Below the pieces are notes generated by a model. The model ran no database searches. It was not told the origin of the DNA and worked only from the letters and a program-made list of their open reading frames with translations. Positions 4,725-40,511 of a DNA stretch of 64,000 nt are shown piece by piece. Location of the stretch: contig JAUYOV010000004.1 in the NCBI GenBank assembly GCA_030697795.1, positions 144,403-208,402 of the forward strand, read 5' to 3'. Each line of letters starts with the position of its first letter. The stretch's first letter is position 1. A program made the translations under genes and the position numbers. This stretch comes from a bacterium. Its GTDB lineage: Bacteria > Patescibacteriota > Minisyncoccia > JACQLN01.

Positions 4725-5705
4725 TTAGTAATCAGAAACTGCTTTTTTAGATGGTTGATTTTTCAGTGCGTAGCGCGCCAACTCATGCTGAGTAACCAGC
4801 TGTCTGTCAAAATTCTCCGGATAACGATACATAACTGGCCAAAGAGATGCTTGAGAACTATAACAAGCCGTGAACATTACCCTTTCCTTTGTTGTCGCTA
4901 AGCCACCCTTATGTAAGCCGCTGGTGTCGCAAAAAACTAAAGTCCCAGCTTTGCCGGTAATTGTTTTGACGTTCTCTTTCGGTATTTTTCTCTCAACTGA
5001 TCCGGCCGGCGGATAAAAACCTTTGGGTGGACGCTGTGGAAAAATATTCCGCCAAGGACCTCCGTGTTGAGAACCAATTACATATGTAAATGGACCGGCT
5101 TGTTCGTCTACATCATTTAAATAAAGAAAAACCTTGCACATCTTTTTGTCTTCGGGATCCCGATGCCAACGTTGTGATTTAATAGCTTCAATACCTACTC
5201 CAACTGGAACAGTAACATTTAAAGTAAAAATACGGAATTTGGAAAAAAGCCCCAAATAACTGTTAACGATTTCTAAAATTCGCGAATCCAACGCCAGCGC
5301 CACAAATGGATTATCAAGATTAATTAATGGGAACATCTCCCATAGCTCCTTTAAAAAGGGCTTGCCCCTTCTTGATTGGGCTGTGGGCAATAGTTGCTTA
5401 AAATATTTTTCCAGTTGAAATAGAATTTCTTCTGGGAAAAGTTCGTTAATATGGACTATGGCCAGACCCTTATCTTTCAGGTCTTGAATAATTTTTTTTT
5501 GAACATTGGACAAAACTACAGTGGCATTATATTTTCTATACAAACGAACACTTTCGCGATTTAAAATAAAGTACCAAACCGGCCAAGATGTCCGGATAGC
5601 GTAATAGGGCCTAGTCACCAAAAAAACCAACAACTTTTTAAAACGTCCTAGAACTAATAAAGCACGATTAACTATTTTTAAAATATATCTTTTGTAAATA
5701 AACAT
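4725..5705 (-). CDS. Fe(II)/2-oxoglutarate dioxygenase, PhyH-like
   Basis: WHRDPED ... DEQAGPFTYVIGSQHGG (H-x-D ... H facial-triad layout typical of the phytanoyl-CoA dioxygenase family). Confidence 0.5.
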   Translation of the reverse strand: MFIYKRYILKIVNRALLVLGRFKKLLVFLVTRPYYAIRTSWPVWYFILNRESVRLYRKYNATVVLSNVQKKIIQDLKDKGLAIVHINELFPEEILFQLEKYFKQLLPTAQSRRGKPFLKELWEMFPLINLDNPFVALALDSRILEIVNSYLGLFSKFRIFTLNVTVPVGVGIEAIKSQRWHRDPEDKKMCKVFLYLNDVDEQAGPFTYVIGSQHGGPWRNIFPQRPPKGFYPPAGSVERKIPKENVKTITGKAGTLVFCDTSGLHKGGLATTKERVMFTACYSSQASLWPVMYRYPENFDRQLVTQHELARYALKNQPSKKAVSDY

Positions 5706-5711
5706 TGGCGT

Positions 5712-6890
5712 TTAGGCAACCCAAAGTTTTATATTATCCTCAAATTGCACTTCTATCGGTATTTTTGGTGAAGAAACAAACGGAATAGCTAACGGTTCAA
5801 CAAGAACACATCTTAATTTGGTAGATCTCCATTGGGACGAGAATGTGGACCATAACCATTTTTTAAATGACCCTCCTCGTACCATTTTTTCACACCTGTT
5901 TTGATAATCAGGCCAACTCCAATAATAACTAAGATTTTTGAGTCGTTTCTTTAACAATAAACCGCTTTTTAATTTCATAATAGCCTTATCGAAATAATTT
6001 CCGGTTTTTGTCTCGCTCTGAGGAAATTGACCTGTCTTTTTGGCAACTACATTAATATACTGATCCGTGGTTAAAGAATCATCAATAATTTGATACCCCG
6101 CATTATTAAGCAACATATTTAATGATTTTATCGTGAAAGAGTGAAGATGGGGCAAGTATAGTAAGGTGCCCATGGCTGCTTCCTGTGCAAAATTCGGCAC
6201 ACTTAAAATAATCAAATCTCCATTTTCCTGTAAACAGGAAATTTTTTCGAAAAAACTATCTGGTTGAGTGACATGCTCAAGTACATGCTGAGCAAGAAAC
6301 ATCCGCACTGGGGCAATATTCTTTAACTGATCTTGAACCAAACTACTTTCAAAATCCCCGAAGAGCACATTCATACCATAACCCTGTGAAGCAACCACAA
6401 CTTGAGCTCTTGAACTCTCTACACCTACTAAATTCCTAAAGCCCAATTCAGAAAGTTGTCTTAATGATTGGCCAACACCGCTACCAATTTCACACACCAC
6501 AACTTCTTTATATTCAGAAAATTTGTTAGCTAGCCTGATGGTTACATTCATCTTTAACATTAGTTGGCTCATTTCGACTTTTCTTTTAGCTTTATCTATT
6601 CTTTTCTCTAAATTTTTAAATGACTGATCGCCCCATTCTTCCGAATAAAAATTACTAATCCATGATTGAGTCGGCCTATCCATGTAAGCTACATGCCCAC
6701 AAAAATCACAACATCCGATTCTTAAAAAATTTTTATACTTGATACTGGTCAAAGCACAAACCGCTTTAAAGGCCAAACCACACGCGGGACAGTTTTGATA
6801 AAACTCCAACGGAATACTGGGGTTTATTTCCATAGGCCTAAATTTATTTAATTTTACAAACTCCTTTATTTTGAATCCCAATTTTTCCAT
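5712..6890 (-). CDS. SAM-dependent methyltransferase with N-terminal Cys4 zinc ribbon (sugar C-methyltransferase-like)
   Basis: CPACG...CCDFCGH zinc ribbon followed by VVCEIGSGVGQSL motif I; this architecture resembles TylC3/TcaB9-type sugar C-methyltransferases. Confidence 0.5.
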   Translation of the reverse strand: MEKLGFKIKEFVKLNKFRPMEINPSIPLEFYQNCPACGLAFKAVCALTSIKYKNFLRIGCCDFCGHVAYMDRPTQSWISNFYSEEWGDQSFKNLEKRIDKAKRKVEMSQLMLKMNVTIRLANKFSEYKEVVVCEIGSGVGQSLRQLSELGFRNLVGVESSRAQVVVASQGYGMNVLFGDFESSLVQDQLKNIAPVRMFLAQHVLEHVTQPDSFFEKISCLQENGDLIILSVPNFAQEAAMGTLLYLPHLHSFTIKSLNMLLNNAGYQIIDDSLTTDQYINVVAKKTGQFPQSETKTGNYFDKAIMKLKSGLLLKKRLKNLSYYWSWPDYQNRCEKMVRGGSFKKWLWSTFSSQWRSTKLRCVLVEPLAIPFVSSPKIPIEVQFEDNIKLWVA

Positions 6891-6908
6891 GGCAAAATTA
6901 TTAAAATT

Positions 6909-8129
6909 TTAAAAGAGTGAGGATACGCCCAAAAGTTCCGAAACCTTTTTATTAAACCTCCTAAATTCATCTCTCTGTTCTTCGAAAACATTTCTAAACC
7001 TATCTTTTAATTCTTTTTTGTTGGCCAAAGCATGCCGGGCTTTAATATAAACTTTATCTGCTAAATCAAGATCAAAAATATCGACTCCAATATCCTGCAA
7101 ACCGACATTATCTAGAAAATCCGACATACGTGTTTGAGAAATTAAAGGAATCATCGGCGTACCTAAACCAATAGACGGTGACATTGAATGAATTCTCATA
7201 CTAAGCGCCAGATCAGCTTTGGCATAGCGGCCATAGAAATACTCTGTCTGGGAAACACGCTGTAAACCAGTGGAGATGGTAACCTGATGGAGAATCCTGG
7301 GTTTCAAAAAGCCAATCAATTCGGTCATGGTTTTGTAGTCGTCAAAATAATGTGGTACAAGAATAAGATTTAGTTCTTGTTCAGCAACTAGTCTTTCAAT
7401 GGCTCGGGCTAATCGTTTCAAAAAAATCGTCTTTCGTCCTTGCCAATCTGGGACATTACGCCAGAACTTTAAAAGTCTATTTTCGGAAACATGGGAACCT
7501 AAAACCGACCAGAACAACTCTCGAGTTCTACCACCATAGCGATAAACTTCATCTTCATTATTGAGAGATAATAACACATTGGGCTTGTCCCGGACCAATT
7601 CAGGATATTCGTGATCGGTGGCTGTAACAAAAAGAGCTGGATCTGGAACCTCAATAATTCTATCTGATTGGTAACCAATCAGGGATTCCAGCCAGGGTTT
7701 ACAACCGTCATTGCGAACCGCGAATAAAACTTTAGGATTAGAGAGTAACCAAGCCATAGCCTTAATCAATTTGTCACGATGATGATAATATTGCTTGGGC
7801 CAAAATTTATAGGAAATACCGTAAAAAATTATGGGTTTTTTAATCTGTGTCAAAAGATTATAGGGCAGATCTAAACGAAAACCGGTATTAGGCAAATAAT
7901 GTCTGCCGTTAAAAGCCACGGCTCCACCCACCAATAATCCGTCAGCATTATTAACTTTATCAACAAAACTTTGGTCAAATTTTTTTATTTCAAAAGTATA
8001 ATCATCCCACGGTTCAGCTAAAAACTCTACGGGACCGAGGTCTTCAGTCAAAACTCGTTCGGTACCATAAATTAAAGCTCCATTACCAATATTGGTACTT
8101 TTGAAATTAGCGAGGTGAATTAGTTTCAT
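6909..8129 (-). CDS. polysaccharide pyruvyl transferase family protein
   Basis: N-terminal NIGNGALIYG and C-terminal SMRIHSMSPSIGLGTPMIPL match the CsaB/WcaK-type conserved blocks. Confidence 0.55.
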   Translation of the reverse strand: MKLIHLANFKSTNIGNGALIYGTERVLTEDLGPVEFLAEPWDDYTFEIKKFDQSFVDKVNNADGLLVGGAVAFNGRHYLPNTGFRLDLPYNLLTQIKKPIIFYGISYKFWPKQYYHHRDKLIKAMAWLLSNPKVLFAVRNDGCKPWLESLIGYQSDRIIEVPDPALFVTATDHEYPELVRDKPNVLLSLNNEDEVYRYGGRTRELFWSVLGSHVSENRLLKFWRNVPDWQGRKTIFLKRLARAIERLVAEQELNLILVPHYFDDYKTMTELIGFLKPRILHQVTISTGLQRVSQTEYFYGRYAKADLALSMRIHSMSPSIGLGTPMIPLISQTRMSDFLDNVGLQDIGVDIFDLDLADKVYIKARHALANKKELKDRFRNVFEEQRDEFRRFNKKVSELLGVSSLF

Positions 8130-8134
8130 CCTAT

Positions 8135-8884
8135 TTAATTAAGCTGGGGCAGATAACCCCTTTTTATCAAAAACTCAGCTAATTCCAAATCCATAGGCGT
8201 ATCAATGTCAATTGTTTTATTAGAGTCAACAACAATTCCTCGCAAATCTTTCCCCCAAACTCTTCCTTTTTTTATAAATTTGGTCCGGGTAATATCCACA
8301 TTACTATCCTGCAAGTAGGCCGGATCAAGCCATTGCCTCGGAACATCGGTAGTGTGTTTAGCAAAATATTTTGTTAATAAAATTGGCATTAGCTTGTTAG
8401 TGTTCTTTTTGAATTTCCACATTTTGTAGGGACTGTGCGATGGAATATGCACTGTCCGTACTGAATCACATTTTGTTTTTTCTATATATTCTATAGCTTG
8501 ATCAATATCTTTACTGGTTCTAAAAGGACTAGTGGGTTTTAACAAAACAATAAACTCCGGCTGCCAACCGCGATGTTTTTCTGCCCACTCCACAGCATGC
8601 TTTAAAAATTCAATATCGGTTGAATCAGCGCGAGCATACTTTTTGGGTCGTAAAAATGGGACATCGGCCCCAAATGATTTAGCTACTTCGGCAATTTTTA
8701 AATCATCTGTAGAAACTAAAAAAGCGTCTAACTTAGTAGCGTTTTGAGCTGCTTTAATGGTGTAATAAATCAAAGGCCGGCCGGCCAAAGGCGCGATGTT
8801 TTTATAAGGAATACCTTTAGAACCTCCGCGAGCCGGAATAATTCCTAATGTCCTTACATCTTTAATATTTTTACTCATTATCAT
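8135..8884 (-). CDS. neuA: acylneuraminate/ulosonate cytidylyltransferase (CMP-sugar synthetase, NeuA/KdsB family)
   Basis: GIIPARGGSKGIPYKN signature of the CTP_transf_3 family. Confidence 0.8.
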   Translation of the reverse strand: MIMSKNIKDVRTLGIIPARGGSKGIPYKNIAPLAGRPLIYYTIKAAQNATKLDAFLVSTDDLKIAEVAKSFGADVPFLRPKKYARADSTDIEFLKHAVEWAEKHRGWQPEFIVLLKPTSPFRTSKDIDQAIEYIEKTKCDSVRTVHIPSHSPYKMWKFKKNTNKLMPILLTKYFAKHTTDVPRQWLDPAYLQDSNVDITRTKFIKKGRVWGKDLRGIVVDSNKTIDIDTPMDLELAEFLIKRGYLPQLN

Positions 8885-22671: not shown

Positions 22672-25600
22672 TTACTGCGTCAAGGTTAGAGTCTCGGTCA
22701 CACCGCCGTCAGTGTTGGAGAGACCGGACACCAAGAAACCGTTGAACCAATCGTAGGAGCTAACTGATTGGGCAGTGTTAGTGGAATTACCAGACCAAAT
22801 GAAATCATTGTCCGGCCAAGCATCCACATTAGCCGCCGTGGTAGCAAAGACATAACGACCAGTCGTGTAATTATCACCACTGCAGGTTATATCACCACCG
22901 CATACTTCAATATCAACACTATCATCAGCATATTCGCCATTATTCAGTGAAGCAAACTGGGCATCGCTCTGCATCTTAGCCACAATTGAAGGTGTGGAAC
23001 TCGCACCAGTAACATCGGCTTTCAACACAAAGTATCTGGTTTCTCCCGCCGGAATCGCAACCGCTTCAGCGGTAGCACTGGTTGGGTTGGCGGGGTTAAA
23101 GGTTATGCTGACAATCTGCTCGTTAGATCCACCCGCCGTGGTGCTGGCTATAGTAGAGAAGTCGGAAATACCAGTACCGTTAAGTAAACCACTGTTGTTG
23201 GTGTTGCCACAGGCAGGCACACTGAAACTGGCATCGCTATAACAGAACACTTGGTAGTTGGTCACCCGATAGTCAGACACAGGCGGATCTTCTGTATTAG
23301 GACCTTCGGGGAACTCCTGCAGATAACCGCTGACCGAAGTGGACACCGAGAAGGTAAACTTGTACAAGCTAATGCCGTTAGTGCTAGCCGGAGACAAAAT
23401 CTTAAACCGGTACAAGCTTTGCTCCGATAGGTTGGAAAACTTAGTGTTGGTTAAAGCCACTCTTTCCACTGTGGGAACAGCTTTGGCAATTCTAGCGCCG
23501 TTAGAAGCCGTGTCAGATCCGCCAGAATAAAGAGCAGTACCGGAAGATGCGCCTGTACCCTTCAATCCAAGATTAGTTTCATCATCCGATGACGCAGCAT
23601 CATGTTGCACCATAATCAAGTGCCCCGGGAAAGCACTGGTAACTGTACCAACAGTGCCAATATCACCTTTAACGGTTATAAGCATCTGGGTGTCTTTAGT
23701 AATGGTTAAATCAGCATCAGTAGCACCAAAACTAGTGCTAAAGGTGGTAGTAGCATAATCACTGCTAGTAAATGTGGCCTCACCGATTTTCTTAGCGCCA
23801 CTCCACAAAGTAACCTTGCTGATATCCGAAGGCGTATTGGAAGCCATAGTATCATTTGCATCCGTTGAAGAAGCAATCTGAAGACCCATTCTTTCTAGTT
23901 TTATATCCTCGTAAGTAGCATTGACTCTTAATACAGCCAGAGTTTGATCAGTCGCGCCAGCTTGCACCCATTTTAGAGCTGGGCTGGAAGAATCCAAAAC
24001 TACCGATACCGAACCGCCACTACGCAAGGTCATAGCCTGTCCGTTAGCCGTGGAAAGGGTTTCTGTAACTGCTTGACCCGATGTTTGGCCGGTAGAAGTT
24101 ATACTGCCTGCCGCACTGGTTACACCCAAACTAAATGTGGTTGTGCCCGCTGTAGCTTCCGCATCCACATTGCCTTTAACATCGCACTTTAAGGCAATCG
24201 TCTTGACCGAACCTTTGGGCGTAATTAAACCGCTGTCCAAGTTGAAGGTAAGATCATCACCCGTGGTTACGCTGTTAGCCGGGCTATTGGTATTACCACC
24301 TGTGGTCAGTGAGGTGTCACCGTCAAACAAGGCGCAACTCTGTAACTGGTCAAATGTATTGGCCGTACCGGTAACTCTCGTCTTAAACAAGGTGGTGCGA
24401 ATATCTTCGCCCGAAGCCGAAGCGTCAAAAACATAGTTGGCAAAAACGAAAGATTTGGAACCGGTAACTATATTTTGAGCTGATGGGGTCGGGGATACAG
24501 TTACTGTAAGCGCCGCCGCTTTCACTGTCATGGTATTTAAGGTAACAGCGCTAGCCGGACCGGGCGTAATGGAATTACCTGTAGTCTTGCCTCTGACAGT
24601 GCTCCAGTCGGAACTGGGTGTGGTGGAAGCCGACACTGTGTCGTTGCTCAAGAAATCCGTACCCATCTTACCCTTAATGGTGTAAGTGTTGGTGCCGATA
24701 GGGAAAGTAACCGTGTCGGTAAACTGAATACCGTTATTACCGCCAGCTACACCGTCTACCGGACCCGCCACTGTATTGCCGTTGCCATCCACCAAAGTAA
24801 TACTGGTAATGTCAACAGAATCAATAGCGCCTCCCACGCCAGCCGATTCAACCGTGGAAACATCAAAGTTCATGGATGCTACAGAAATTTCTTCGCCTTT
24901 TATTTCTACATCAAACCCGCCCAAAATCTGGTTGGAAAGATTAACCGCAACATTTTGCGCGGCTACCTTGCTAGATTTGGTTACGTTAATAGTGCCGTTG
25001 GAAATCGTAACTTCATAGCCATCATAGTTAGGATTAGCATCTTGGAAAGTGCCGTCATCATCCGTAGCTGAATCAGCAGAGTTACTGGCTGTTGGCAAAA
25101 TGTCATAACCGTAAACATTGCCAGCAACTTTAATATCAGCATATCTGTAAAGATCAAAGTCTACACCGCGACCGGAACCGCTAATAATATCGCCCTTAAT
25201 GTAGATGTCTTTGAACTCACCCTTAGCTAATTTCAAACCGGCATCGCCGAATTTAGCTGTAAAATACTTACCATCGCTGGAAACAGTATGGTCGTAGCAA
25301 TCACCGCCATCAATACAGGTTTTAACATTGGTTAAGTCGCCTGTAGCGGCTGAACCGGATTGATTCCATCTTATGGATTTAACTGTCATATCTTCCGATG
25401 AACCTGCCGAGAGTTTAATGGAAGCAAAAGTATAATTGGTCAAACCAACTTCTTTAGTGGGACTGGAACCGGGTTCTCGTGCACCTGTGGTCAAAGTCAA
25501 AGTGCCCACTGCTAGGGTAGAGTTAATCGTCATACCGTTACCAACGATTGGTAAAGTGCCATTAACCGTGGCCGAACCGGCATCCACCGCGATCAAACTT

Positions 25601-26451
25601 AAAGTGGCAATTTGGCCAGCATAAGCGTCTTGGTTGTTGTCGGAATCGCCGGCAAGGCTCATACCTCGCGTGGTGCCAGCTTTAACCACAAAGGGTTCGT
25701 TCAAAACAGCTTGGTGGTTGGAATTTAGTGTTTTGGAAGTACCGATTCTGGTGCCTGTTTCATCCAAAAGGATCAAACCGCTAAAGACTGCGTCTTGGGC
25801 TTGTCCAGTTCTTTCAATCGTTACCGATTTAACCGTAACATCGCCATCCGAAGAAGCTGTAAAGTTAATCTTGGTGAAGGGTCGGGAAGCAAAGCTTTCA
25901 CCGAAAAGACCCGCCGCCGCCGTATCACTTGCCAAAGCTACTGTTAAACCGCTACCCGCCGCGACTGGTGCGGTTGGCGTGGTTGCAGAAGGCGTGGTTG
26001 GCGTAACAGCAACAGAACCAGCCATAGAAGAATATTTAGCCCTTGAAATCGTACCAAAATAACCTGCGGCTGGGCTAACACCATTGGCAGATTGCCAAGA
26101 TGCCACTGCGGCTTTGGTTACATTGCCAAAGTAACCCGTAGCAGTAGCACTAAAATTCCCCATGGATTTTAAATAGTTTTGTAAGCACGTAACATCATCT
26201 CCGCGCGCGCCTACAGTTAATGCTCTAGTAAACGTACAGGCAGTTGCGCCAGCCGAACTAGAACCGCCCTGCAAAGCGATCAACTGTGCCTGAAGAGCTT
26301 GGATTTGCGACAGTAAAAGCGCAATCGTCTCCGCAGTTGTAGCTGCGCCAGCAGTAGGAACGCCTACGAGCCAAGCAAAAGTTGTTACCATCAAACCGAA
26401 AGAAACAACTTTGCTAGCGAGCTCACGGCGCTTGCTAGTAAAATAACTCAT
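22672..26451 (-). CDS. giant secreted/cell-surface protein with N-terminal peptidoglycan-binding-like domain and Thr/Ser/Gly/Ala-rich beta-repeat body (S-layer/adhesin-like)
   Basis: 1259 aa. N-terminus has a hydrophobic signal, then CTFTRALTVGARGDDVTCLQNYLKSMG…GYFGNVTKAAVASWQ (PG_binding_1-like). Strong SD AAGGAG 9 nt upstream. The gene looks more GC-rich than its surroundings, driven by T/S/G/A codons. Confidence 0.7.
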   Translation of the reverse strand: MSYFTSKRRELASKVVSFGLMVTTFAWLVGVPTAGAATTAETIALLLSQIQALQAQLIALQGGSSSAGATACTFTRALTVGARGDDVTCLQNYLKSMGNFSATATGYFGNVTKAAVASWQSANGVSPAAGYFGTISRAKYSSMAGSVAVTPTTPSATTPTAPVAAGSGLTVALASDTAAAGLFGESFASRPFTKINFTASSDGDVTVKSVTIERTGQAQDAVFSGLILLDETGTRIGTSKTLNSNHQAVLNEPFVVKAGTTRGMSLAGDSDNNQDAYAGQIATLSLIAVDAGSATVNGTLPIVGNGMTINSTLAVGTLTLTTGAREPGSSPTKEVGLTNYTFASIKLSAGSSEDMTVKSIRWNQSGSAATGDLTNVKTCIDGGDCYDHTVSSDGKYFTAKFGDAGLKLAKGEFKDIYIKGDIISGSGRGVDFDLYRYADIKVAGNVYGYDILPTASNSADSATDDDGTFQDANPNYDGYEVTISNGTINVTKSSKVAAQNVAVNLSNQILGGFDVEIKGEEISVASMNFDVSTVESAGVGGAIDSVDITSITLVDGNGNTVAGPVDGVAGGNNGIQFTDTVTFPIGTNTYTIKGKMGTDFLSNDTVSASTTPSSDWSTVRGKTTGNSITPGPASAVTLNTMTVKAAALTVTVSPTPSAQNIVTGSKSFVFANYVFDASASGEDIRTTLFKTRVTGTANTFDQLQSCALFDGDTSLTTGGNTNSPANSVTTGDDLTFNLDSGLITPKGSVKTIALKCDVKGNVDAEATAGTTTFSLGVTSAAGSITSTGQTSGQAVTETLSTANGQAMTLRSGGSVSVVLDSSSPALKWVQAGATDQTLAVLRVNATYEDIKLERMGLQIASSTDANDTMASNTPSDISKVTLWSGAKKIGEATFTSSDYATTTFSTSFGATDADLTITKDTQMLITVKGDIGTVGTVTSAFPGHLIMVQHDAASSDDETNLGLKGTGASSGTALYSGGSDTASNGARIAKAVPTVERVALTNTKFSNLSEQSLYRFKILSPASTNGISLYKFTFSVSTSVSGYLQEFPEGPNTEDPPVSDYRVTNYQVFCYSDASFSVPACGNTNNSGLLNGTGISDFSTIASTTAGGSNEQIVSITFNPANPTSATAEAVAIPAGETRYFVLKADVTGASSTPSIVAKMQSDAQFASLNNGEYADDSVDIEVCGGDITCSGDNYTTGRYVFATTAANVDAWPDNDFIWSGNSTNTAQSVSSYDWFNGFLVSGLSNTDGGVTETLTLTQ

Positions 26452-35495: not shown

Positions 35496-35754
35496 ATAGA
35501 TACTATAGCAAAATTTAAAGTGGATAACCCGTCTTGCTTTGGTATATTACAGGACTATAATAAAAGTGAACTTGGTGGTTGGTTCCGATGAAAAGTCGGA
35601 ATACAGGATTTTAAAAGTTTTAGCTCAAAATTATTTGTTCAAGGGATTCCTAAATTGCGACTGCGTGCTGATTCGTTCGGGCGTTGATCGTTGCGGAAAC
35701 CCACCTATTAATTAGGCTGAACACACTTTTAAAATCCCGACCAAGTTCATTAAA

Positions 35755-35790
35755 AAACCCGAGATTTTATTCTCGGATTTTTTAATTTAT
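35755..35790. terminator. bidirectional intrinsic terminator after the adk-like gene
   Basis: AAAAAACCCGAGAttttattCTCGGATTTTTT. Confidence 0.6.
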
Positions 35791-35797
35791 CCCAACT

Positions 35798-36871
35798 TTA
35801 TAAACCTAAAACTTTTGACACCTGTTTTATAAGCCCCACCGCCACAGTTGCTGGCAATAAACTGTAAGATTTTTCTCCAGCATCATCTTTAATTGTCCAC
35901 GTTTCTTGGATTGTCTTTACTTTATTTGAAGATTTATCCAGTTCGTAACGATAACATGGTGTAATTTCATAATCATCTACAAACTTTTTAGCTGAATCAA
36001 CTGGCACAGAATTTCGTAAATAAATTTTAGTAATGCCATTTAATCCCACCAGAGTTTTCATAACTTTATCGTCAACTTCTATTCGGTCTCTAATTGCTTC
36101 AATGCCTAAACTATCACCCTCCTTAGGCACCATTCTGCCTCCATTACAACCGACGTCATCACAAATTAAATAAAATTGTTTTGTTTTTTCGTCATAACCA
36201 ACTTCTTTTGTAGCAAGAACCCTAATATTGCGGGGCGTCTGGCACTTAGAGCAAATTACTCTAAATTTTATGCGCTCGTCCATCACAGACTCTGGAACGT
36301 TTATAAACACAAAAAAATCGGGGTCGTCGCGATAGCCCATCAAGGCTCTAAAATAAAGAGAATAGGAAATTTGATCTAAATCGCGAGGGAAACCATCTAT
36401 AAAGATGGCTTTGCCTTTTAGCATACTAATTTGACGCTCTACTAAAGCCAGAATAACTTCTGTAGGCAAAAGCGATTTAGTATCGCGGCCTAAAATAATT
36501 TCCAATGCCTTTTCCACTGTAATCGGCCCTCTATAACGTCTCTTTAAAAATTCAATAAGTTCTTTCTTTTTAGTTTTATCGCCCAATTCTTTGTGAACAC
36601 TGCGCACAATATCGCCTATAGAAATATGGGCAACTTTGTCGCTGCCAACCGCTTCCATAAAAAGTTTAGTATAAGTGCCTTTACCAGAATTCTTTTTGCC
36701 TAGTAAAAAACCTACGAAGGTATTCTTCTTTAAATATTTTTGTATTTTTTTAATATCTTCGCCAGCTTTTAACTTAAAATATTTTTGGCGATCGGCTGGG
36801 TCCTCTAGCTTAAAAACTTGCTTAACACCACTGACTTTTGTTTTAAAAATCGGGAAAGAAGAATTATTCAT
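35798..36871 (-). CDS. adk: adenylate kinase family protein with N- and C-terminal extensions
   Basis: GFLLGKKNSGKGTYTKLF P-loop; IFIDGFPRDLDQ; Cys4 lid CSKC…CDDVGC; 357 aa. Confidence 0.6.
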   Translation of the reverse strand: MNNSSFPIFKTKVSGVKQVFKLEDPADRQKYFKLKAGEDIKKIQKYLKKNTFVGFLLGKKNSGKGTYTKLFMEAVGSDKVAHISIGDIVRSVHKELGDKTKKKELIEFLKRRYRGPITVEKALEIILGRDTKSLLPTEVILALVERQISMLKGKAIFIDGFPRDLDQISYSLYFRALMGYRDDPDFFVFINVPESVMDERIKFRVICSKCQTPRNIRVLATKEVGYDEKTKQFYLICDDVGCNGGRMVPKEGDSLGIEAIRDRIEVDDKVMKTLVGLNGITKIYLRNSVPVDSAKKFVDDYEITPCYRYELDKSSNKVKTIQETWTIKDDAGEKSYSLLPATVAVGLIKQVSKVLGL

Positions 36872-37052
36872 TGTTTGTTTTTATATTAACGATTTCGTAG
36901 TATATCAGATTTTAAGAAAAAACAAAGTCCCGCTAGTGAATTTCCGATATGCATTTGTTAAAATAAACCACTTGTCCACTTTTCAGGCGATCACATTAAA
37001 AGTGGATTTATTAAACTTTATTAAACACCAAGTGTTCAATAAAAAATAAAAA

Positions 37053-37088
37053 CCCGTAGTGACCGCCTTGGGCGAGTCTACTACGGGG
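37053..37088 (-). terminator. hairpin plus U-run terminating the GC-rich island operon (left flank repeat)
   Basis: CCCGTAGTGACcgccttgggcgaGTCTACTACGGG preceded on the plus strand by AAAAAATAAAAA (a T-run on the minus strand). Confidence 0.55.
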
Positions 37089-37207
37089 TGAAACCCTGCT
37101 AGCGAATTCCCGATTTTTCCGGCTTTCGTTAAAAAGCCTTTCGGAAATTCTGCTACGGGGAGCCCCCGACTTTCGCCGGGAGCTACATCAAGGTCAAACC
37201 TTGATAA

Positions 37208-37645
37208 CTATATCTTTTTTTGACCAATCATTTCCGCAACTTCCTCAATCGGATTCTTGTGCTGGTGAACTTCCTGCGGAATCTGCTGAACCTTGTATTT
37301 CTCCTTGAGATTGCAGGCTCCTTGTTCAGTCATCCACTTCAGCCACATAGCAACGCCGTTCTCCGTCGGTTCGTTCCGATACTTCGCGTTGGAGATCAAC
37401 TCGTCCAGCCGAGCGAGATTATTCGGTGTACCGGCCTCTGCGAGTTCGGGGAACCACCTCAAAAGCCAAGGTTTGCATTCGTCGTTTGCTCTTGGAAACT
37501 GGTGAGCGAACAGGTTGTCGCCGGTCATGAAGTTCAGAATGTCGTACACGCCATCGGTGTGCCGAGTGGAAACGACACGTCCCGTGATAATGCTCAATAC
37601 ATCACTAACATGAAACTCTCTCTCTCTTTCCTTTTTTGCCATCAT
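37208..37645 (-). CDS. hypothetical protein (145 aa) in GC-rich island
   Basis: Strong SD AAAGGAGGAAA 6 nt upstream of the ATG; visibly higher GC than the flanks; no recognisable domain. Confidence 0.55.
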   Translation of the reverse strand: MMAKKEREREFHVSDVLSIITGRVVSTRHTDGVYDILNFMTGDNLFAHQFPRANDECKPWLLRWFPELAEAGTPNNLARLDELISNAKYRNEPTENGVAMWLKWMTEQGACNLKEKYKVQQIPQEVHQHKNPIEEVAEMIGQKKI

Positions 37646-37690
37646 GATATTTCCTCCTTTGATTGGGATTGCGGACGATTTGTCCGAGGG

Positions 37691-38059
37691 TTAGATCTTC
37701 CTGAAAAAAGCTCCGGAAAAAGTTGCGCCGGGAGTGCCTACTTCTGCACTATAGAGAGAACTTTCACCAACAGAACTCCCTTCAGAATCCACAACCTTGA
37801 CCCACTGGTGGTGGCCTACGGAATTCCCGATATTCTTCGGGCATGGATCGTCGTGCTCTATCATTTCATCGGGCCACGGATCTTGGCCAGACTTGTAAAA
37901 TTCATCTGCTCCGCATTCGCAGTGTAACGGAGGAACTGGTATGACCTCCGAAACCCGAAAAGGTCCTTCGCTATACTCTTCAATCCGCTTGCCTTCCCTC
38001 CACGCAACTGAATTCCCGACAGAAAAACTTTCCTTTTTTTCTTTTTTTGCGGTTTTCAT
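37691..38059 (-). CDS. hypothetical Cys/His-containing protein (122 aa) in GC-rich island
   Basis: AGGAGGGG SD; ATG 1 nt after the upstream peptide stop; HCECGADEF…DPCPKN…GHHQW possible metal site. Confidence 0.5.
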   Translation of the reverse strand: MKTAKKEKKESFSVGNSVAWREGKRIEEYSEGPFRVSEVIPVPPLHCECGADEFYKSGQDPWPDEMIEHDDPCPKNIGNSVGHHQWVKVVDSEGSSVGESSLYSAEVGTPGATFSGAFFRKI

Positions 38060-38060
38060 T

Positions 38061-38189
38061 TTACCCCTCCTGTTTAATGAATCTTACAAGGTTGAACCCA
38101 ACCAGCAGGGAAATCCAGACACTGATCACCACGCTCCAACCATACTGCCTGACCCACCACTCCCACACTGGCATAGTCATCCTTTTCAC
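38061..38189 (-). CDS. small hydrophobic peptide (about 42 aa) leading the island operon
   Basis: GGAGGGGG SD 5 nt upstream of the GTG; VKRMTMPVWEWWVRQYGWSVVISVWISLLVGFNLVRFIKQEG; TTGACT-type promoter candidate about 60 nt upstream. Confidence 0.35.
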   Translation of the reverse strand: MKRMTMPVWEWWVRQYGWSVVISVWISLLVGFNLVRFIKQEG

Positions 38190-38358
38190 TTTAACCCCCT
38201 CCATTAGTGAGTTTAAAAACAAGTTTTTGAAGAACAAATTATGCCGAAATGATACCATATCACAATGATAAAAGTCAATAGCGAGTAAATAACCCAAATA
38301 AACCCATATTTTAAGCCATATTTTCCTATGAGTTTTTAACGAGTAGCTGAAAATATGT

Positions 38359-38409
38359 GCCCCGTAGTGATGCAAAGCCGAGCTCGGCGAAGCATCTACT
38401 ACTGGGGCC
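38359..38409. repeat. right flank hairpin of GC-rich island (related to left flank)
   Basis: GCCCCGTAGTGATGCaaagCCGAGCTCGGcgaaGCATCTACTACTGGGGC shares the CCGTAGTGA…TC(T)ACTACGGG arms with 37053-37088. Confidence 0.5.
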
Positions 38410-38437
38410 ATTTTTTCACATTTTCATACGCCGTACT

Positions 38438-38461
38438 CCGAGCATACGATCGTATGCTCGG
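38438..38461. repeat. perfect 24-nt palindrome CCGAGCATACGATCGTATGCTCGG
   Basis: Read directly; centre ATACGATCGTAT shared with the palindrome at 50821-50850. Confidence 0.6.
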
Positions 38462-38506
38462 TGTACGTTATTTAAATTTAAAATGCTAACTAAAATGAGA
38501 TCAAAA

Positions 38507-39355
38507 TTAACGATACACCACATCACCCAATTGGTCGTTCCTAAAAACTTTAACTCCAAACTTATTTAACCTATCCAACACTAACGGCGTGGGGTGACCA
38601 TACGAATTTTTACCAACTTGTATAATAGCTTCTTCGGGTTTGGTAATTTTTAATAAAGCTTCCGATGTAGAAGTTTTAGAACCATGATGCCCTATCTTTA
38701 GGACGTCTACATCTGAAACTATATTTGACTTGATTAATTCTTTTTCTAAAACTTCATCCATATCGCCTGTTAACAAAAACTTTTTGTGGCCCAAGTTTAA
38801 TTCACTAACAATCATAGATTCATGTATGCCTTTAAAATTTACACCGAGAGTCTCTTTGACCGGCGCCAAAATGTGCAAAATCAGATTTTGCACATTTTTG
38901 TCCAACACCTGGTGTTGGACAAAGCTTACTGTATCGCCAGCTTGGGCTAAATATATTTTAGAACCTTCCAGTTTTAAGACTGCCAAAAAATCAGCGTAAA
39001 CCTTACTTTCATAATTAGCGCCCGCCAACATAAAATTTTTAACATTATAATCTTTTAAAATAGATACTAAACCACGCAAGTGATCGGCGTGGGGGTGGGA
39101 CAAAATAACAAGTTCTATGTCTTTGTCGTAAAAAGGCATATAGCGCGAAATCTTGGCCGAAACACCGGCCGACGGCCCGCCATCTATTAAAATTTGAATA
39201 TCACTTGGTAAAACTATTAACTGGCTATCGCCCTGGCCCACATCTAAAAAAATAACTTGAGCTTTTTGATTTTCTTTTTCCAAAACAAACCAAAAAATTA
39301 AAACTGTAAGAAAAATTAATATGCCTAAAACAAAACTTTTAGTTAAGTGGATCAT
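38507..39355 (-). CDS. comEC: ComEC/Rec2 C-terminal metallo-beta-lactamase domain protein
   Basis: ILSHPHADHLRGL MBL motif; N-terminal TM helix; 282 aa. Confidence 0.7.
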   Translation of the reverse strand: MIHLTKSFVLGILIFLTVLIFWFVLEKENQKAQVIFLDVGQGDSQLIVLPSDIQILIDGGPSAGVSAKISRYMPFYDKDIELVILSHPHADHLRGLVSILKDYNVKNFMLAGANYESKVYADFLAVLKLEGSKIYLAQAGDTVSFVQHQVLDKNVQNLILHILAPVKETLGVNFKGIHESMIVSELNLGHKKFLLTGDMDEVLEKELIKSNIVSDVDVLKIGHHGSKTSTSEALLKITKPEEAIIQVGKNSYGHPTPLVLDRLNKFGVKVFRNDQLGDVVYR

Positions 39356-40511
39356 TATAGCCGTGATTTTCTAAATACTTCCAAAACAAATAAAGAAAGG
39401 GATAAAAAATTAAAATGGCTAAGCCCGATTTTCCCATATTAACACTCGCCCAAGAAAACGAAGCAAAAAATTCTACAATCTTTATATTTACTTTTAAAAT
39501 AAGCCAAACCGGCCATAAAAATATTTGCGCTAAATAGCTAGACCAAAAAACTGTTACAAATCCTAAACCTAAAAACATTATAGGGTTAAGCAGGGGCACC
39601 ACAAAAATATTGGCTATGGGGCTTATAACCGAAAGTGTACCAAAGTTATATAAAATAATAGGCCAAGTGGTTGTTTGCGCTGCCATAGAAAGCACAACAA
39701 GTTCGCGCGCTGGTTTTGTGGGGACCCAAAATAAAACCCTTGCCCAAAAATTTTTAAAATAAATTATGCCAATAACCGCCAAAAAAGAAAGCTGAAACCC
39801 AATACTAAAAACTAAAAGCTTGGGGTTTAACGCCACCATAAAAAATGCGGCCAACATTATGGGCCGCCAAGCCTGCACCAACCTGCCCTTATTTTTGGCC
39901 CAAAGTAAAAGTATACCCATAATACCCGCCCGCACTGCCGAAGCTGGCGCACCCACTAAAAATATAAACATAATTACGGCAATAACTGCCACATAAAAAG
40001 CTTGCTTGCGCCACAAACCTAACCAAAGCCCAAAACTCATTAGCATTAAGGCAATTATAGAAATATTCATTCCGGAAATCGCTAAAACATGCCGCGTACC
40101 GGTTATGTTAAAGTCTTCTTTAATTTTTTGAGCCACATCTTTTTCGTAGCCAAAAACCATAGCGTTAAAAAGTGAGGCTTCGTTTTGGGGCAAAATAGAT
40201 TTGGTGCGTTTGACTAAATATTCACGCGAGGTGTGCCAAAAAGTTTTTTCTTCTTTGGAAAAATCCTCATGGTAAGTCCCTGCCCGAAAAAAACCCAGAG
40301 CGCAAGAAAGTAAAAGAATGAAAAATAAAAACGATCTACCGGACCCGCCCCAAATTTCAAAAATAGAAAAAATTACAGCTATTAAAATTAAAATAAAAAA
40401 GAGCCAAAAAGAAAAACCGACAATTGATTGAAATAGCACGCCCATTAAAAACCCAAAACACATTCCAATTAATGCCCTTGATGATTTCATTACTTTAAAG
40501 TATACTCGCAA
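39339..40511 (-). CDS. comEC: ComEC/Rec2 N-terminal membrane (competence channel) domain protein
   Basis: 390 aa polytopic; HVLAISGMNISIIALMLMS…SAVRAGIMGILLL competence-domain blocks; overlaps the downstream ORF by 17 nt. Confidence 0.7.
   Translation of the reverse strand: MRVYFKVMKSSRALIGMCFGFLMGVLFQSIVGFSFWLFFILILIAVIFSIFEIWGGSGRSFLFFILLLSCALGFFRAGTYHEDFSKEEKTFWHTSREYLVKRTKSILPQNEASLFNAMVFGYEKDVAQKIKEDFNITGTRHVLAISGMNISIIALMLMSFGLWLGLWRKQAFYVAVIAVIMFIFLVGAPASAVRAGIMGILLLWAKNKGRLVQAWRPIMLAAFFMVALNPKLLVFSIGFQLSFLAVIGIIYFKNFWARVLFWVPTKPARELVVLSMAAQTTTWPIILYNFGTLSVISPIANIFVVPLLNPIMFLGLGFVTVFWSSYLAQIFLWPVWLILKVNIKIVEFFASFSWASVNMGKSGLAILIFYPFLYLFWKYLENHGYNDPLN

Follow-up and report, generated by a model that had tools for sequence, protein, structure and literature searches.

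A probable composite, strain-variable accessory locus between comEC and a nucleotide-kinase gene in a member of the Patescibacteriota

Results

A conserved frame with differing genes downstream of comEC

The 64,000-nt stretch of patescibacterial DNA analysed here (GCA_030697795.1, JAUYOV010000004.1:144,403-208,402; 'the window', to whose positions all coordinates refer unless a contig is named) contains, between comEC and an adenylate-kinase-like gene, a G+C-rich island with three small genes, all on the minus strand, which encode in order of transcription a Trp-rich peptide of 42 aa, a 122-aa protein with a Cys/His loop and a 145-aa protein of the family DUF7736. The island is probably a composite, strain-variable accessory locus and not a single inserted cassette. 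As judged from the sequences of related genomes, the clade has a conserved frame between comEC and the nucleotide-kinase gene, consisting of an extended −10 promoter, the peptide gene, a junction and a terminator hairpin, and inside this frame lie one or two small open reading frames (ORFs) that differ between the related genomes. The positions before and after the junction are referred to below as slot 1 and slot 2.

The interval following comEC was recovered in four independent versions, those of the window, of L019, of L020/L021 and of L031/L032, and the ComEC proteins of the relatives are 60-79% identical to that of the window. In the closest relative on a long contig, L031/L032 (MBL domain 79% identical), the same promoter precedes a peptide of 35 aa and two ORFs, of 57 and then 75 aa, which are unrelated to the slot genes of the window and have the junction TAACCCTCGGACAAATAGTCCGAATCACAAAAAGGAGGAACAAAATG between them; next come the terminator AGCTCTCGACGAAAGTCGGGGGC with its U-run, a long hairpin (CCCCGTAGTAGAATTTCCGA...TCGGAAATTCACTAGCAGGG) and ndk. 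By blastn, the window and L031 are 80% identical through comEC to its stop codon, after which only short conserved pieces are found, namely the promoter (38278-38253), the start of the peptide gene (38176-38140), the junction (37694-37651), the terminator hairpin (37185-37161), the long hairpin (37160-37090) and the second copy of its 3' arm (36948-36925), until homology resumes from 35784 at 80-83% identity. The junction (37646-37693), which comprises the slot 1 stop codon, a small hairpin CGGACAAATCGTCCG (37686-37672) and the Shine-Dalgarno (SD) sequence AAAGGAGGAAA (37660-37650), is 89% identical to L031 7296-7336 despite the different genes on both sides, and its homology starts 1 nt before the stop codon of slot 1 and ends 6 nt before the ATG of slot 2; the breaks thus follow ORF boundaries.

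The other two versions contain a Cys/His gene in slot 1 and lack DUF7736. L019, which is probably the continuation of L033 (MBL domain 72% identical), has the comEC palindrome, the same promoter, the peptide, a Cys/His gene (57% identical) and a terminator (GTCCCCGGCGAAAAGTCGGGGGC and then a U-run), with no third gene. In L020/L021 (ComEC 60% identical), comEC is directly followed by the promoter TTGACA-18-TACAAT, then by genes for a peptide of 42 aa and for a Cys/His homologue of 113 aa (42-49% identical), and finally by a terminator and ndk. That the relatives have the promoter and the peptide at this site beside comEC, and two of them the Cys/His gene as well, speaks against the proposal of the initial annotation that all three genes arrived as one cassette. 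Among 34 loci, neither a hairpin-bounded three-gene unit elsewhere nor an adjacency of comEC and the kinase gene with a single hairpin was seen, and a metagenome scan with a seven-sequence query for more versions of the locus returned only one already-known contig.

Composition and coding capacity of the island

G+C across 37050-38100 is 0.47-0.51 in 300-nt windows, compared with 0.30-0.38 in both flanks, and at the 1-kb scale the island (0.485) equals the maximum of the window, although not unique, since the stretch at 23-26 kb gives 0.47-0.49. That other stretch belongs to a gene for a 1259-aa protein with a peptidoglycan-binding domain (22672-26451, minus strand), in which the signal lies at the second codon position (GC2 0.52) and so points to amino-acid composition and not to foreign origin. 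For the G+C fraction at third codon positions (GC3), 37 long ORFs of the window served as host reference (mean 0.354, standard deviation 0.05, maximum 0.44); the DUF7736 gene (0.60) lies about 4.8 standard deviations above the host mean, the 122-aa gene has a GC3 of 0.45 with GC1 0.54 and GC2 0.44, all raised, and the peptide gene reaches 0.67, over 43 codons only. The G+C-richness that the initial annotation had noted by eye is confirmed by computation.

The start codons and spacings of the three co-directional ORFs, which had been pointed out for their SD sequences, were likewise confirmed. The peptide starts with GTG at 38189, preceded by GGAGGGGG; the ATG of the 122-aa gene at 38059 lies one base past the peptide stop codon; and the ATG of the 145-aa gene at 37645 is preceded by AAAGGAGGAAA. 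All three are real genes, because the 145-aa protein has a DUF7736 match and 132 homologues, 17 homologues share conserved motifs with the 122-aa protein and the peptide can be aligned in three relatives. A plus-strand ORF of 235 aa was rejected as a real gene, as it has no family match, is antisense to two genes with homologues and is not preserved in L020. Also rejected was a Logan contig of 1462 nt (L001, from SRR13727529) as an independent small element, as it equals window 37000-38461 at 99.9% identity and comes from the same genome; each of its ends falls within a palindrome (36975-37006 and 38432-38467, respectively), and such a contig, an artefact of assembly, might be taken for a free element.

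The DUF7736 gene in slot 2

The 145-aa gene (37208..37645, minus strand) is absent from L019 and from L020/L021, and in L031 the 75-aa gene stands in its place. Its product belongs to Pfam DUF7736 (PF24875), with 71.6 bits compared with a cut-off of 25 (E 5.9e-20, residues 11-70), matches phrog_15963 (E 9e-14) and has 132 homologues, all with PF24875, so that the earlier statement that none of the three proteins belongs to a recognized family does not hold for this protein, whose family is named though uncharacterized. In 55 sequences of the family L17, Y34, T41, D43, C57, W101 and E135 are invariant, all of them kept in the window protein, H48, Q49 and R52 are nearly invariant (at least 90%), and a near-invariant GVYDILNFMTGD-LFTHQLPR motif is present, a degree of conservation that suggests a defined binding or catalytic site. 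The AlphaFold2 model of the protein is confident (predicted local distance difference test score, pLDDT, 93) and mainly helical; its predicted fold matches that of the DUF7736 proteins of Brevibacterium and Mycobacterium phages, and it has no relative in the PDB, its only matches being phage DUF7736 proteins. No mention of DUF7736 was found in the literature searched.

The family as a whole is sporadic and tied to mobile elements. It occurs among uncharacterized genes in three actinophages, in viral contigs and in one Brevibacillus megaplasmid, and its members lie beside large serine recombinases (L011, L013), a tyrosine integrase (L012), RecT (L016), a GIY-YIG protein (L008) and a VirD4-like ATPase (L014). 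Named homologues include Magritte gp222, the prophiGD43A-5 gp56 homologue and the JoieB homologue. In many metagenome-assembled genomes of Patescibacteria a lone DUF7736 gene stands among core genes such as dnaK/dnaJ, rpoC or htpX, and the G+C of such genes is 0.49-0.62 in host regions of 0.28 or 0.57 alike (in L009, 0.59 in a region of 0.28). In four genomes of different class-level lineages (L005 100-690, L006 830-1410, L007 150-700 and L010 5895-6455) the DNA of these units is 70-87% identical, including the conserved non-coding parts, namely a promoter, a structured leader, a GCGAG...CTCGC hairpin and a GCCCC...GGGGC terminator, which argues for the transfer of a self-contained DUF7736 unit of about 650 bp. 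The window copy has no promoter of its own and belongs to a subgroup with a longer C-terminal half, in common with L002 and L003; its nearest homologues are just 63-69% identical and lie on contigs of higher G+C such as these two. The gene upstream of DUF7736 in L002/L003 encodes 336 aa and is unrelated to the Cys/His family. Horizontal acquisition, which had been suggested for the whole three-gene module, is thus upheld for the 145-aa gene by its GC3, by its absence from this site in three relatives and by the phage and integrase links of its family, and not for the module.

Some further features of other DUF7736 loci were observed. A repeated non-coding element of about 130-155 nt (CCGCCAAAGAAAAACTTGAAATTGTCA, a G+C-rich hairpin and CGGACTAATTCAAG) occurs in L010 (5621-5753, 6490-6661 and 7850-8059), where it stands on both sides of the DUF7736 unit, and in L005 (741-900), just downstream of it, with 89% identity between the genomes; nothing in Rfam matches it, and the window contains no copy. 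Two lone DUF7736 genes lie directly 3' of sequences that look tRNA-like by eye (L004 ~5105-5190 and L006 ~740-775), with no integrase among the nearby ORFs. The contig L008 is labelled 'Candidatus Nanoarchaeia archaeon', yet 6714-8459 encodes a bacterial-type DnaG primase beside DUF7736, possibly owing to an error of binning or labelling.

The Cys/His protein in slot 1 and the peptide

The 122-aa gene (37691..38059, minus strand; replaced in L031 by the 57-aa gene) is the older occupant of the site, since it is present in the window, L019 and L020/L021, and belongs to a rare family. A word-indexed search with the protein returned only itself, and an exhaustive phmmer search gave 17 relatives of 92-158 aa with the common motifs F-VGD-V-W, GPF-V--V--VP---C-CG, a further Cys, VGHHQW and FSGA-F. 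The protein is predicted to be an SH3/KOW-like barrel with the conserved Cys/His loop (C-x-C...C...VGHHQW) and a C47/C49/C73/H83/H84 cluster. Outside the clade, members of the family are single genes with their own promoter and terminator, beside def, priA or a tRNA gene and without the peptide, and their GC3 is host-like in some genomes (0.29 in L028). In L022 (7-80; a 1.9-kb contig with no integrase gene called) a lone gene of this family lies directly 3' of a sequence that looks tRNA-like by eye. The family gave no PDB sequence match and no relative in viral scans or in the phage collection.

The constant gene of the locus is that for the peptide (38061..38189, minus strand), which together with its GTG start aligns with the peptides that L031, L019 and L020 encode at this position (35-42 aa). 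All versions have the same layout, with a K/R-rich start, a PVWEWW-like motif, one membrane-spanning helix and a basic tail. Whether the peptide has a role connected with ComEC is a matter of speculation.

No family associated with defence, anti-defence or toxin-antitoxin function, the kinds of function initially proposed, matches any of the three proteins. PADLOC-DB 2.0 contained no match for the 145-aa or the 122-aa protein, and for the peptide its only match, to a 4TM effector model, is insignificant (E 0.13). Toxin and antitoxin families in Pfam, NCBIfam and PHROGs matched none of the three, type I systems with antisense-RNA antitoxins lying beyond the reach of sequence comparison. The 122-aa protein, the peptide and the 57-aa and 75-aa proteins of L031 gave nothing in PADLOC, PHROGs, NCBIfam or Pfam; the two L031 proteins had no match in the phage collection, and the 75-aa protein had no relative in viral scans.

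Promoter, terminators and hairpins

The elements of the frame were located individually (all on the minus strand). A palindromic hairpin at the 3' end of comEC (38432..38467), conserved in L019 and L033, forms the left edge of the variable region. It is followed by a hairpin upstream of the promoter (38360..38407), with the stem CCCC(A)GTAGTAGA...TCACTACGGGG and a bulged A, and by a sigma-70-type promoter (38249..38278; TTGACT-18-TATCAT with a TG extension, 10/12 consensus). The hexamers of the latter are properly spaced and align with the promoters of L031, L019 and L020, which bears out the TTGACT-type candidate of the initial annotation. In the 170 nt past the stop codon of the 145-aa gene there are four consecutive hairpins (−80 kcal/mol, z = −6.6). 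The first (37186..37206) is small, stands right after the stop codon, belongs to the insertion and is missing from the relatives. The second, the ancestral terminator hairpin AGCTCCCGGCGAAAGTCGGGGGCT (37161..37184), is kept in L019, L020 and L031, each with a U-run that has been lost in the window, where the hairpin directly abuts the third, a long ancestral hairpin CCCCGTAGCAGAATTTCCGA...TCGGGAATTCGCTAGCAGGG (37094..37160), homologous to L031 7714-7789 just upstream of ndk. The fourth is the working terminator (37041..37087), a lineage-specific G+C-rich hairpin CCCGTAGTAGAC...GTCACTACGGG (37087-37053) followed by the U-run UUUUUAUUUUUU, so that the operon does end as had been predicted. The stretch of about 166 nt in which it stands follows the long hairpin and has been inserted or duplicated; it ends, upstream of the adenylate-kinase-like gene, at an extra copy of the long hairpin's 3' arm (ATCGGAAATTCACTAGCGGGA, 36928..36948), which marks how far the duplication extends.

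The hairpins at the left and right of the island were correctly described as having common arms in direct orientation. If one mismatch is allowed, there are three copies of the 12-mer TCTACTACGGGG, all on one strand and at the island edges, compared with 0.07 occurrences in shuffled sequence, and the stem base CCCC(A)GTAGTAGA/TCACTACGGG(G) is common to the upstream hairpin (38407-38360), the working terminator and the ancestral long hairpin. The loops differ despite the conserved stem, and the bulged A is at the same position in the upstream hairpin and the working terminator, both of which look like local copies of the long hairpin's stem. No further copy of the stem was found in the rest of the 64-kb window or in viral contigs, and of the 34 loci only L031/L032 have it, at the corresponding locus; the hairpin upstream of the promoter is another one in L019, and L031 has only the long hairpin. 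Their interpretation as boundaries of a cassette fails, in that homology with the relatives is not interrupted where the hairpins lie, the long hairpin (present in L031) is ancestral and the breaks lie at ORF boundaries. Rfam held no family for the hairpins of the 3' untranslated region.

The motif gctag[t/c]gaatt[t/c]ccgat, reported at 36933 and 37090, is present at both positions. One strand also has, within 1.1 kb, four copies of a shorter motif with an EcoRI site, GAATTCCCGA(T/C), of which 1.35 per 64 kb would be expected by chance. Two are inside the 122-aa gene (37821-37831 and 38010-38020) and two in hairpin arms (37104-37114 and 36938-36948); the coding copies encode GNS, for which L019 has other codons. 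An account of the hairpins or of this motif as genome-wide uptake sequences or repetitive extragenic palindromic (REP) sequences was rejected for the window, in which all copies are local.

Neighbouring genes

The island lies in a backbone that is syntenic with the relatives, in the order class II ribonucleotide reductase, cobA, efp, comEC (with Competence and MBL domains), island, kinase, a conserved non-coding element, nth, a gene for an LTD-domain protein and murD. These neighbours are core genes; no integrase, att repeats, tRNA adjacency or phage structural genes were found near the island, the nearest tRNA genes lying at 30.2 and 30.7 kb of the window. ComEC is split into two ORFs, with a Competence part of 390 aa and an MBL part of 282 aa (38507-40511, minus strand; L020 3583-5603; L031 4866-6828), which overlap by 17 nt in the window and L031 and are adjacent in L020, the split being conserved across the clade. 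On the other side, a 357-aa adenylate-kinase/AAA_17-like protein with a host-like GC3 of 0.30 (35798-36871, minus strand) occupies the position of ndk in L020 and L031, which indicates that the variable region reaches beyond the island. Between this gene and nth lies a conserved structured non-coding element of about 190 nt with its own −10 box and terminator (35556-35790, plus strand). Its counterparts are L031 8539-8743 (84% identity) and L020 7281-7480 (78%), the latter in inverted orientation with respect to the adjacent genes. Of the 67 pairs that RNAalifold predicts in the element, eight show compensatory changes (from three sequences only), and Rfam has no family for it; it is a candidate small RNA gene.

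Discussion

Genomes of Patescibacteria are tiny and are thought to depend on DNA uptake mediated by ComEC, and how they gain genes is poorly known. A locus in which regulatory elements stay fixed while ORF-sized cargo changes among close relatives would therefore offer a concrete and testable example of gene turnover, and the presence of one gene of a widespread, uncharacterized phage family under a defined host promoter offers a natural case in which to study DUF7736. Comparison with the relatives indicates that the older 122-aa gene was retained in slot 1 in the lineage of the window and replaced in that of L031, and that the DUF7736 gene, together with its SD region and small 3' hairpin (~37650-37186), was inserted between the junction and the ancestral terminator from a gene pool of phages and integrative elements. 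A GC3 of 0.60, compared with 0.35 for the host, and the place of the gene between these two elements argue that this insertion was recent. The gene would be expressed from the resident promoter, and transcription should read through the long ancestral hairpin, because the ancestral terminator has lost its U-run, and stop at the new hairpin with its U-run.

As to mechanism, the conserved elements of the frame may have served as sites of homologous recombination at which cargo was swapped, probably following the uptake of DNA. It has been reported that single genes are often transferred among Patescibacteria and that competence operates through comEC (PMC12455944), findings that fit exchange by this route. 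The cargo may serve conflict with phages or mobile elements or some other strain-specific function, and we regard the former role as a sensible guess, though one less likely than not. It is also interesting to speculate that the frame as a whole, with its promoter, peptide gene, junction hairpin and SD sequence, terminator and CCCCGTAGTAGA-stem hairpins with the bulged A, constitutes a recombinase-free platform for gene capture and expression, in which naturally competent Patescibacteria would swap small mobile-element genes at ORF boundaries and the shared hairpins would act as signals for recombination or RNA processing; this extension of the composite-locus hypothesis seems rather unlikely.

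Several points weigh against the composite, variable locus that we favour. The 'swappable slot' amounts to different cargo in a single genome (L031/L032) and an additional gene in the window, among four versions only, and two independent events of insertion or replacement would give the same picture. The recombination mechanism is something that we infer. The peptide and Cys/His genes are themselves somewhat G+C-rich, which amino-acid composition (GC2 0.44) explains only in part, and repeated exchange could be involved. The hairpin stems with the same bulged A are not accounted for, and may have a role, in protein recognition for example, that lies outside this account. If there were just two independent events, the locus would be a small accessory operon with one recent gene gain; it would gain in significance if many different cargos occupied the same frame across the clade.

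One alternative explanation is that the locus is a toxin-antitoxin or abortive-infection module, in which the peptide would act as a toxin that damages membranes, with the soluble proteins encoded downstream as its antidotes or sensors. A single-span membrane peptide of 35-42 aa whose translation is coupled to that of a small soluble protein would suit such a role, as would partners that vary between strains, one of them phage-associated. Yet the peptide is conserved while its partners have unrelated folds, whereas a toxin and its cognate antidote should co-vary; it is unusual for a toxin gene to have so strong an SD sequence and a promoter that, like this one, appears strong and constitutive; the sole PADLOC match is the insignificant one of the peptide, with no toxin-antitoxin family match; and both the Cys/His family and DUF7736 also occur alone, without the peptide, in other genomes. 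We consider such a module improbable.

The model of the initial annotation, one horizontally acquired three-gene cassette of a defence, toxin-immunity or phage-derived kind with the hairpins as its insertion boundaries, would account for the high G+C across the whole 1.1 kb, for the arm-sharing hairpins in direct orientation at both edges with their threefold 12-mer, for the compact operon of translationally coupled genes and for the link of DUF7736 to mobile elements. It is nevertheless very unlikely, as the promoter, peptide and Cys/His gene occur at the same site in L019 and L020/L021 without DUF7736 and without these hairpins, L031 keeps the frame and holds different ORFs, the long hairpin is ancestral while homology breaks at ORF boundaries, GC3 is strongly unlike between the genes (0.60 vs 0.45) and neither PADLOC nor toxin-antitoxin families gave matches. 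The opposite view, of an ordinary lineage-specific operon inherited vertically, whose G+C stems from amino-acid composition or structured RNA with no horizontal transfer, can draw on the synteny of the peptide and Cys/His gene in genomes with ComEC 60-72% identical, on the GC1 (0.54) and GC2 (0.44) of the Cys/His gene, which reflect amino-acid composition, and on the host-like GC3 of its family in L028. We likewise give it very little credence, for the GC3 of the DUF7736 gene is beyond what amino-acid composition would yield, this gene is absent at the site in three relatives, both L031 slots hold unrelated ORFs, and DUF7736 is sporadic over Patescibacteria classes, phages and integrase-flanked elements. 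A hairpin-mobilized element of the IS200/IS605 or REP type, its ends recognized by a Y1 (HUH) transposase supplied elsewhere in the genome, is suggested by three hairpins on one strand with a common stem base and bulged A and is extremely unlikely, as no ORF of the island matches a transposase family, the stem is confined to this locus within the window and, among 34 loci, to the same locus of L031/L032, one hairpin is ancestral and immediately upstream of ndk in L031, and homology with the relatives continues inside the hairpin-bounded segment.

Comparison with known systems

The subterminal hairpins of IS200/IS605 elements appear to resemble those of the island. As in these elements and in REP sequences, similar imperfect hairpins with one extrahelical base are found in direct orientation at both edges of a segment; unlike them, the island has no transposase among its ORFs, the copies are confined to the locus and the hairpins do not lie at the breaks of homology. 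With DUF7736/phrog_15963 the 145-aa protein agrees in a score well above the Pfam cut-off, in all invariant residues and in a matching predicted fold, but the units of other Patescibacteria are self-contained whereas the window copy has a longer C-terminal half and lacks its own promoter.

Phage 'morons' and gene-boundary mosaicism in phage genomes also offer a likeness, as a single ORF of higher G+C, from a phage-borne family and with its own SD sequence and small 3' hairpin, lies between existing genes; here the recipient is a chromosomal operon among core genes and not a prophage, with no phage genes or integrase nearby. Integron platforms also combine a resident promoter with promoterless, strain-variable, ORF-sized genes and have short hairpins at the junctions. 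The locus has no adjacent IntI or other integrase gene and is flanked by core genes in the same order in the relatives, it offers at most two slots, and the window and L031 have no conserved R'/R'' core sites in common; we do not class it as an integron. An attC site measures at least 55 nt, far above the hairpin at the junction of slots 1 and 2, which is only 15 nt, and the 3' hairpins are terminator-like.

Flexible genomic islets, variable loci of the replacement type set among conserved core genes, likewise have conserved syntenic flanks (here comEC on one side and nth with the non-coding element on the other) around content that varies and cargo that is deviant in composition and partly derived from mobile elements. 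The present locus differs from them in its size of about 1.1 kb with one or two ORFs, and in that the internal promoter, first gene, junction and terminator are conserved while ORFs are exchanged with breakpoints a few bases from stop and start codons. Islets with variable content are already known; what appears to be new here is the conservation of regulatory elements within a variable islet of small size.

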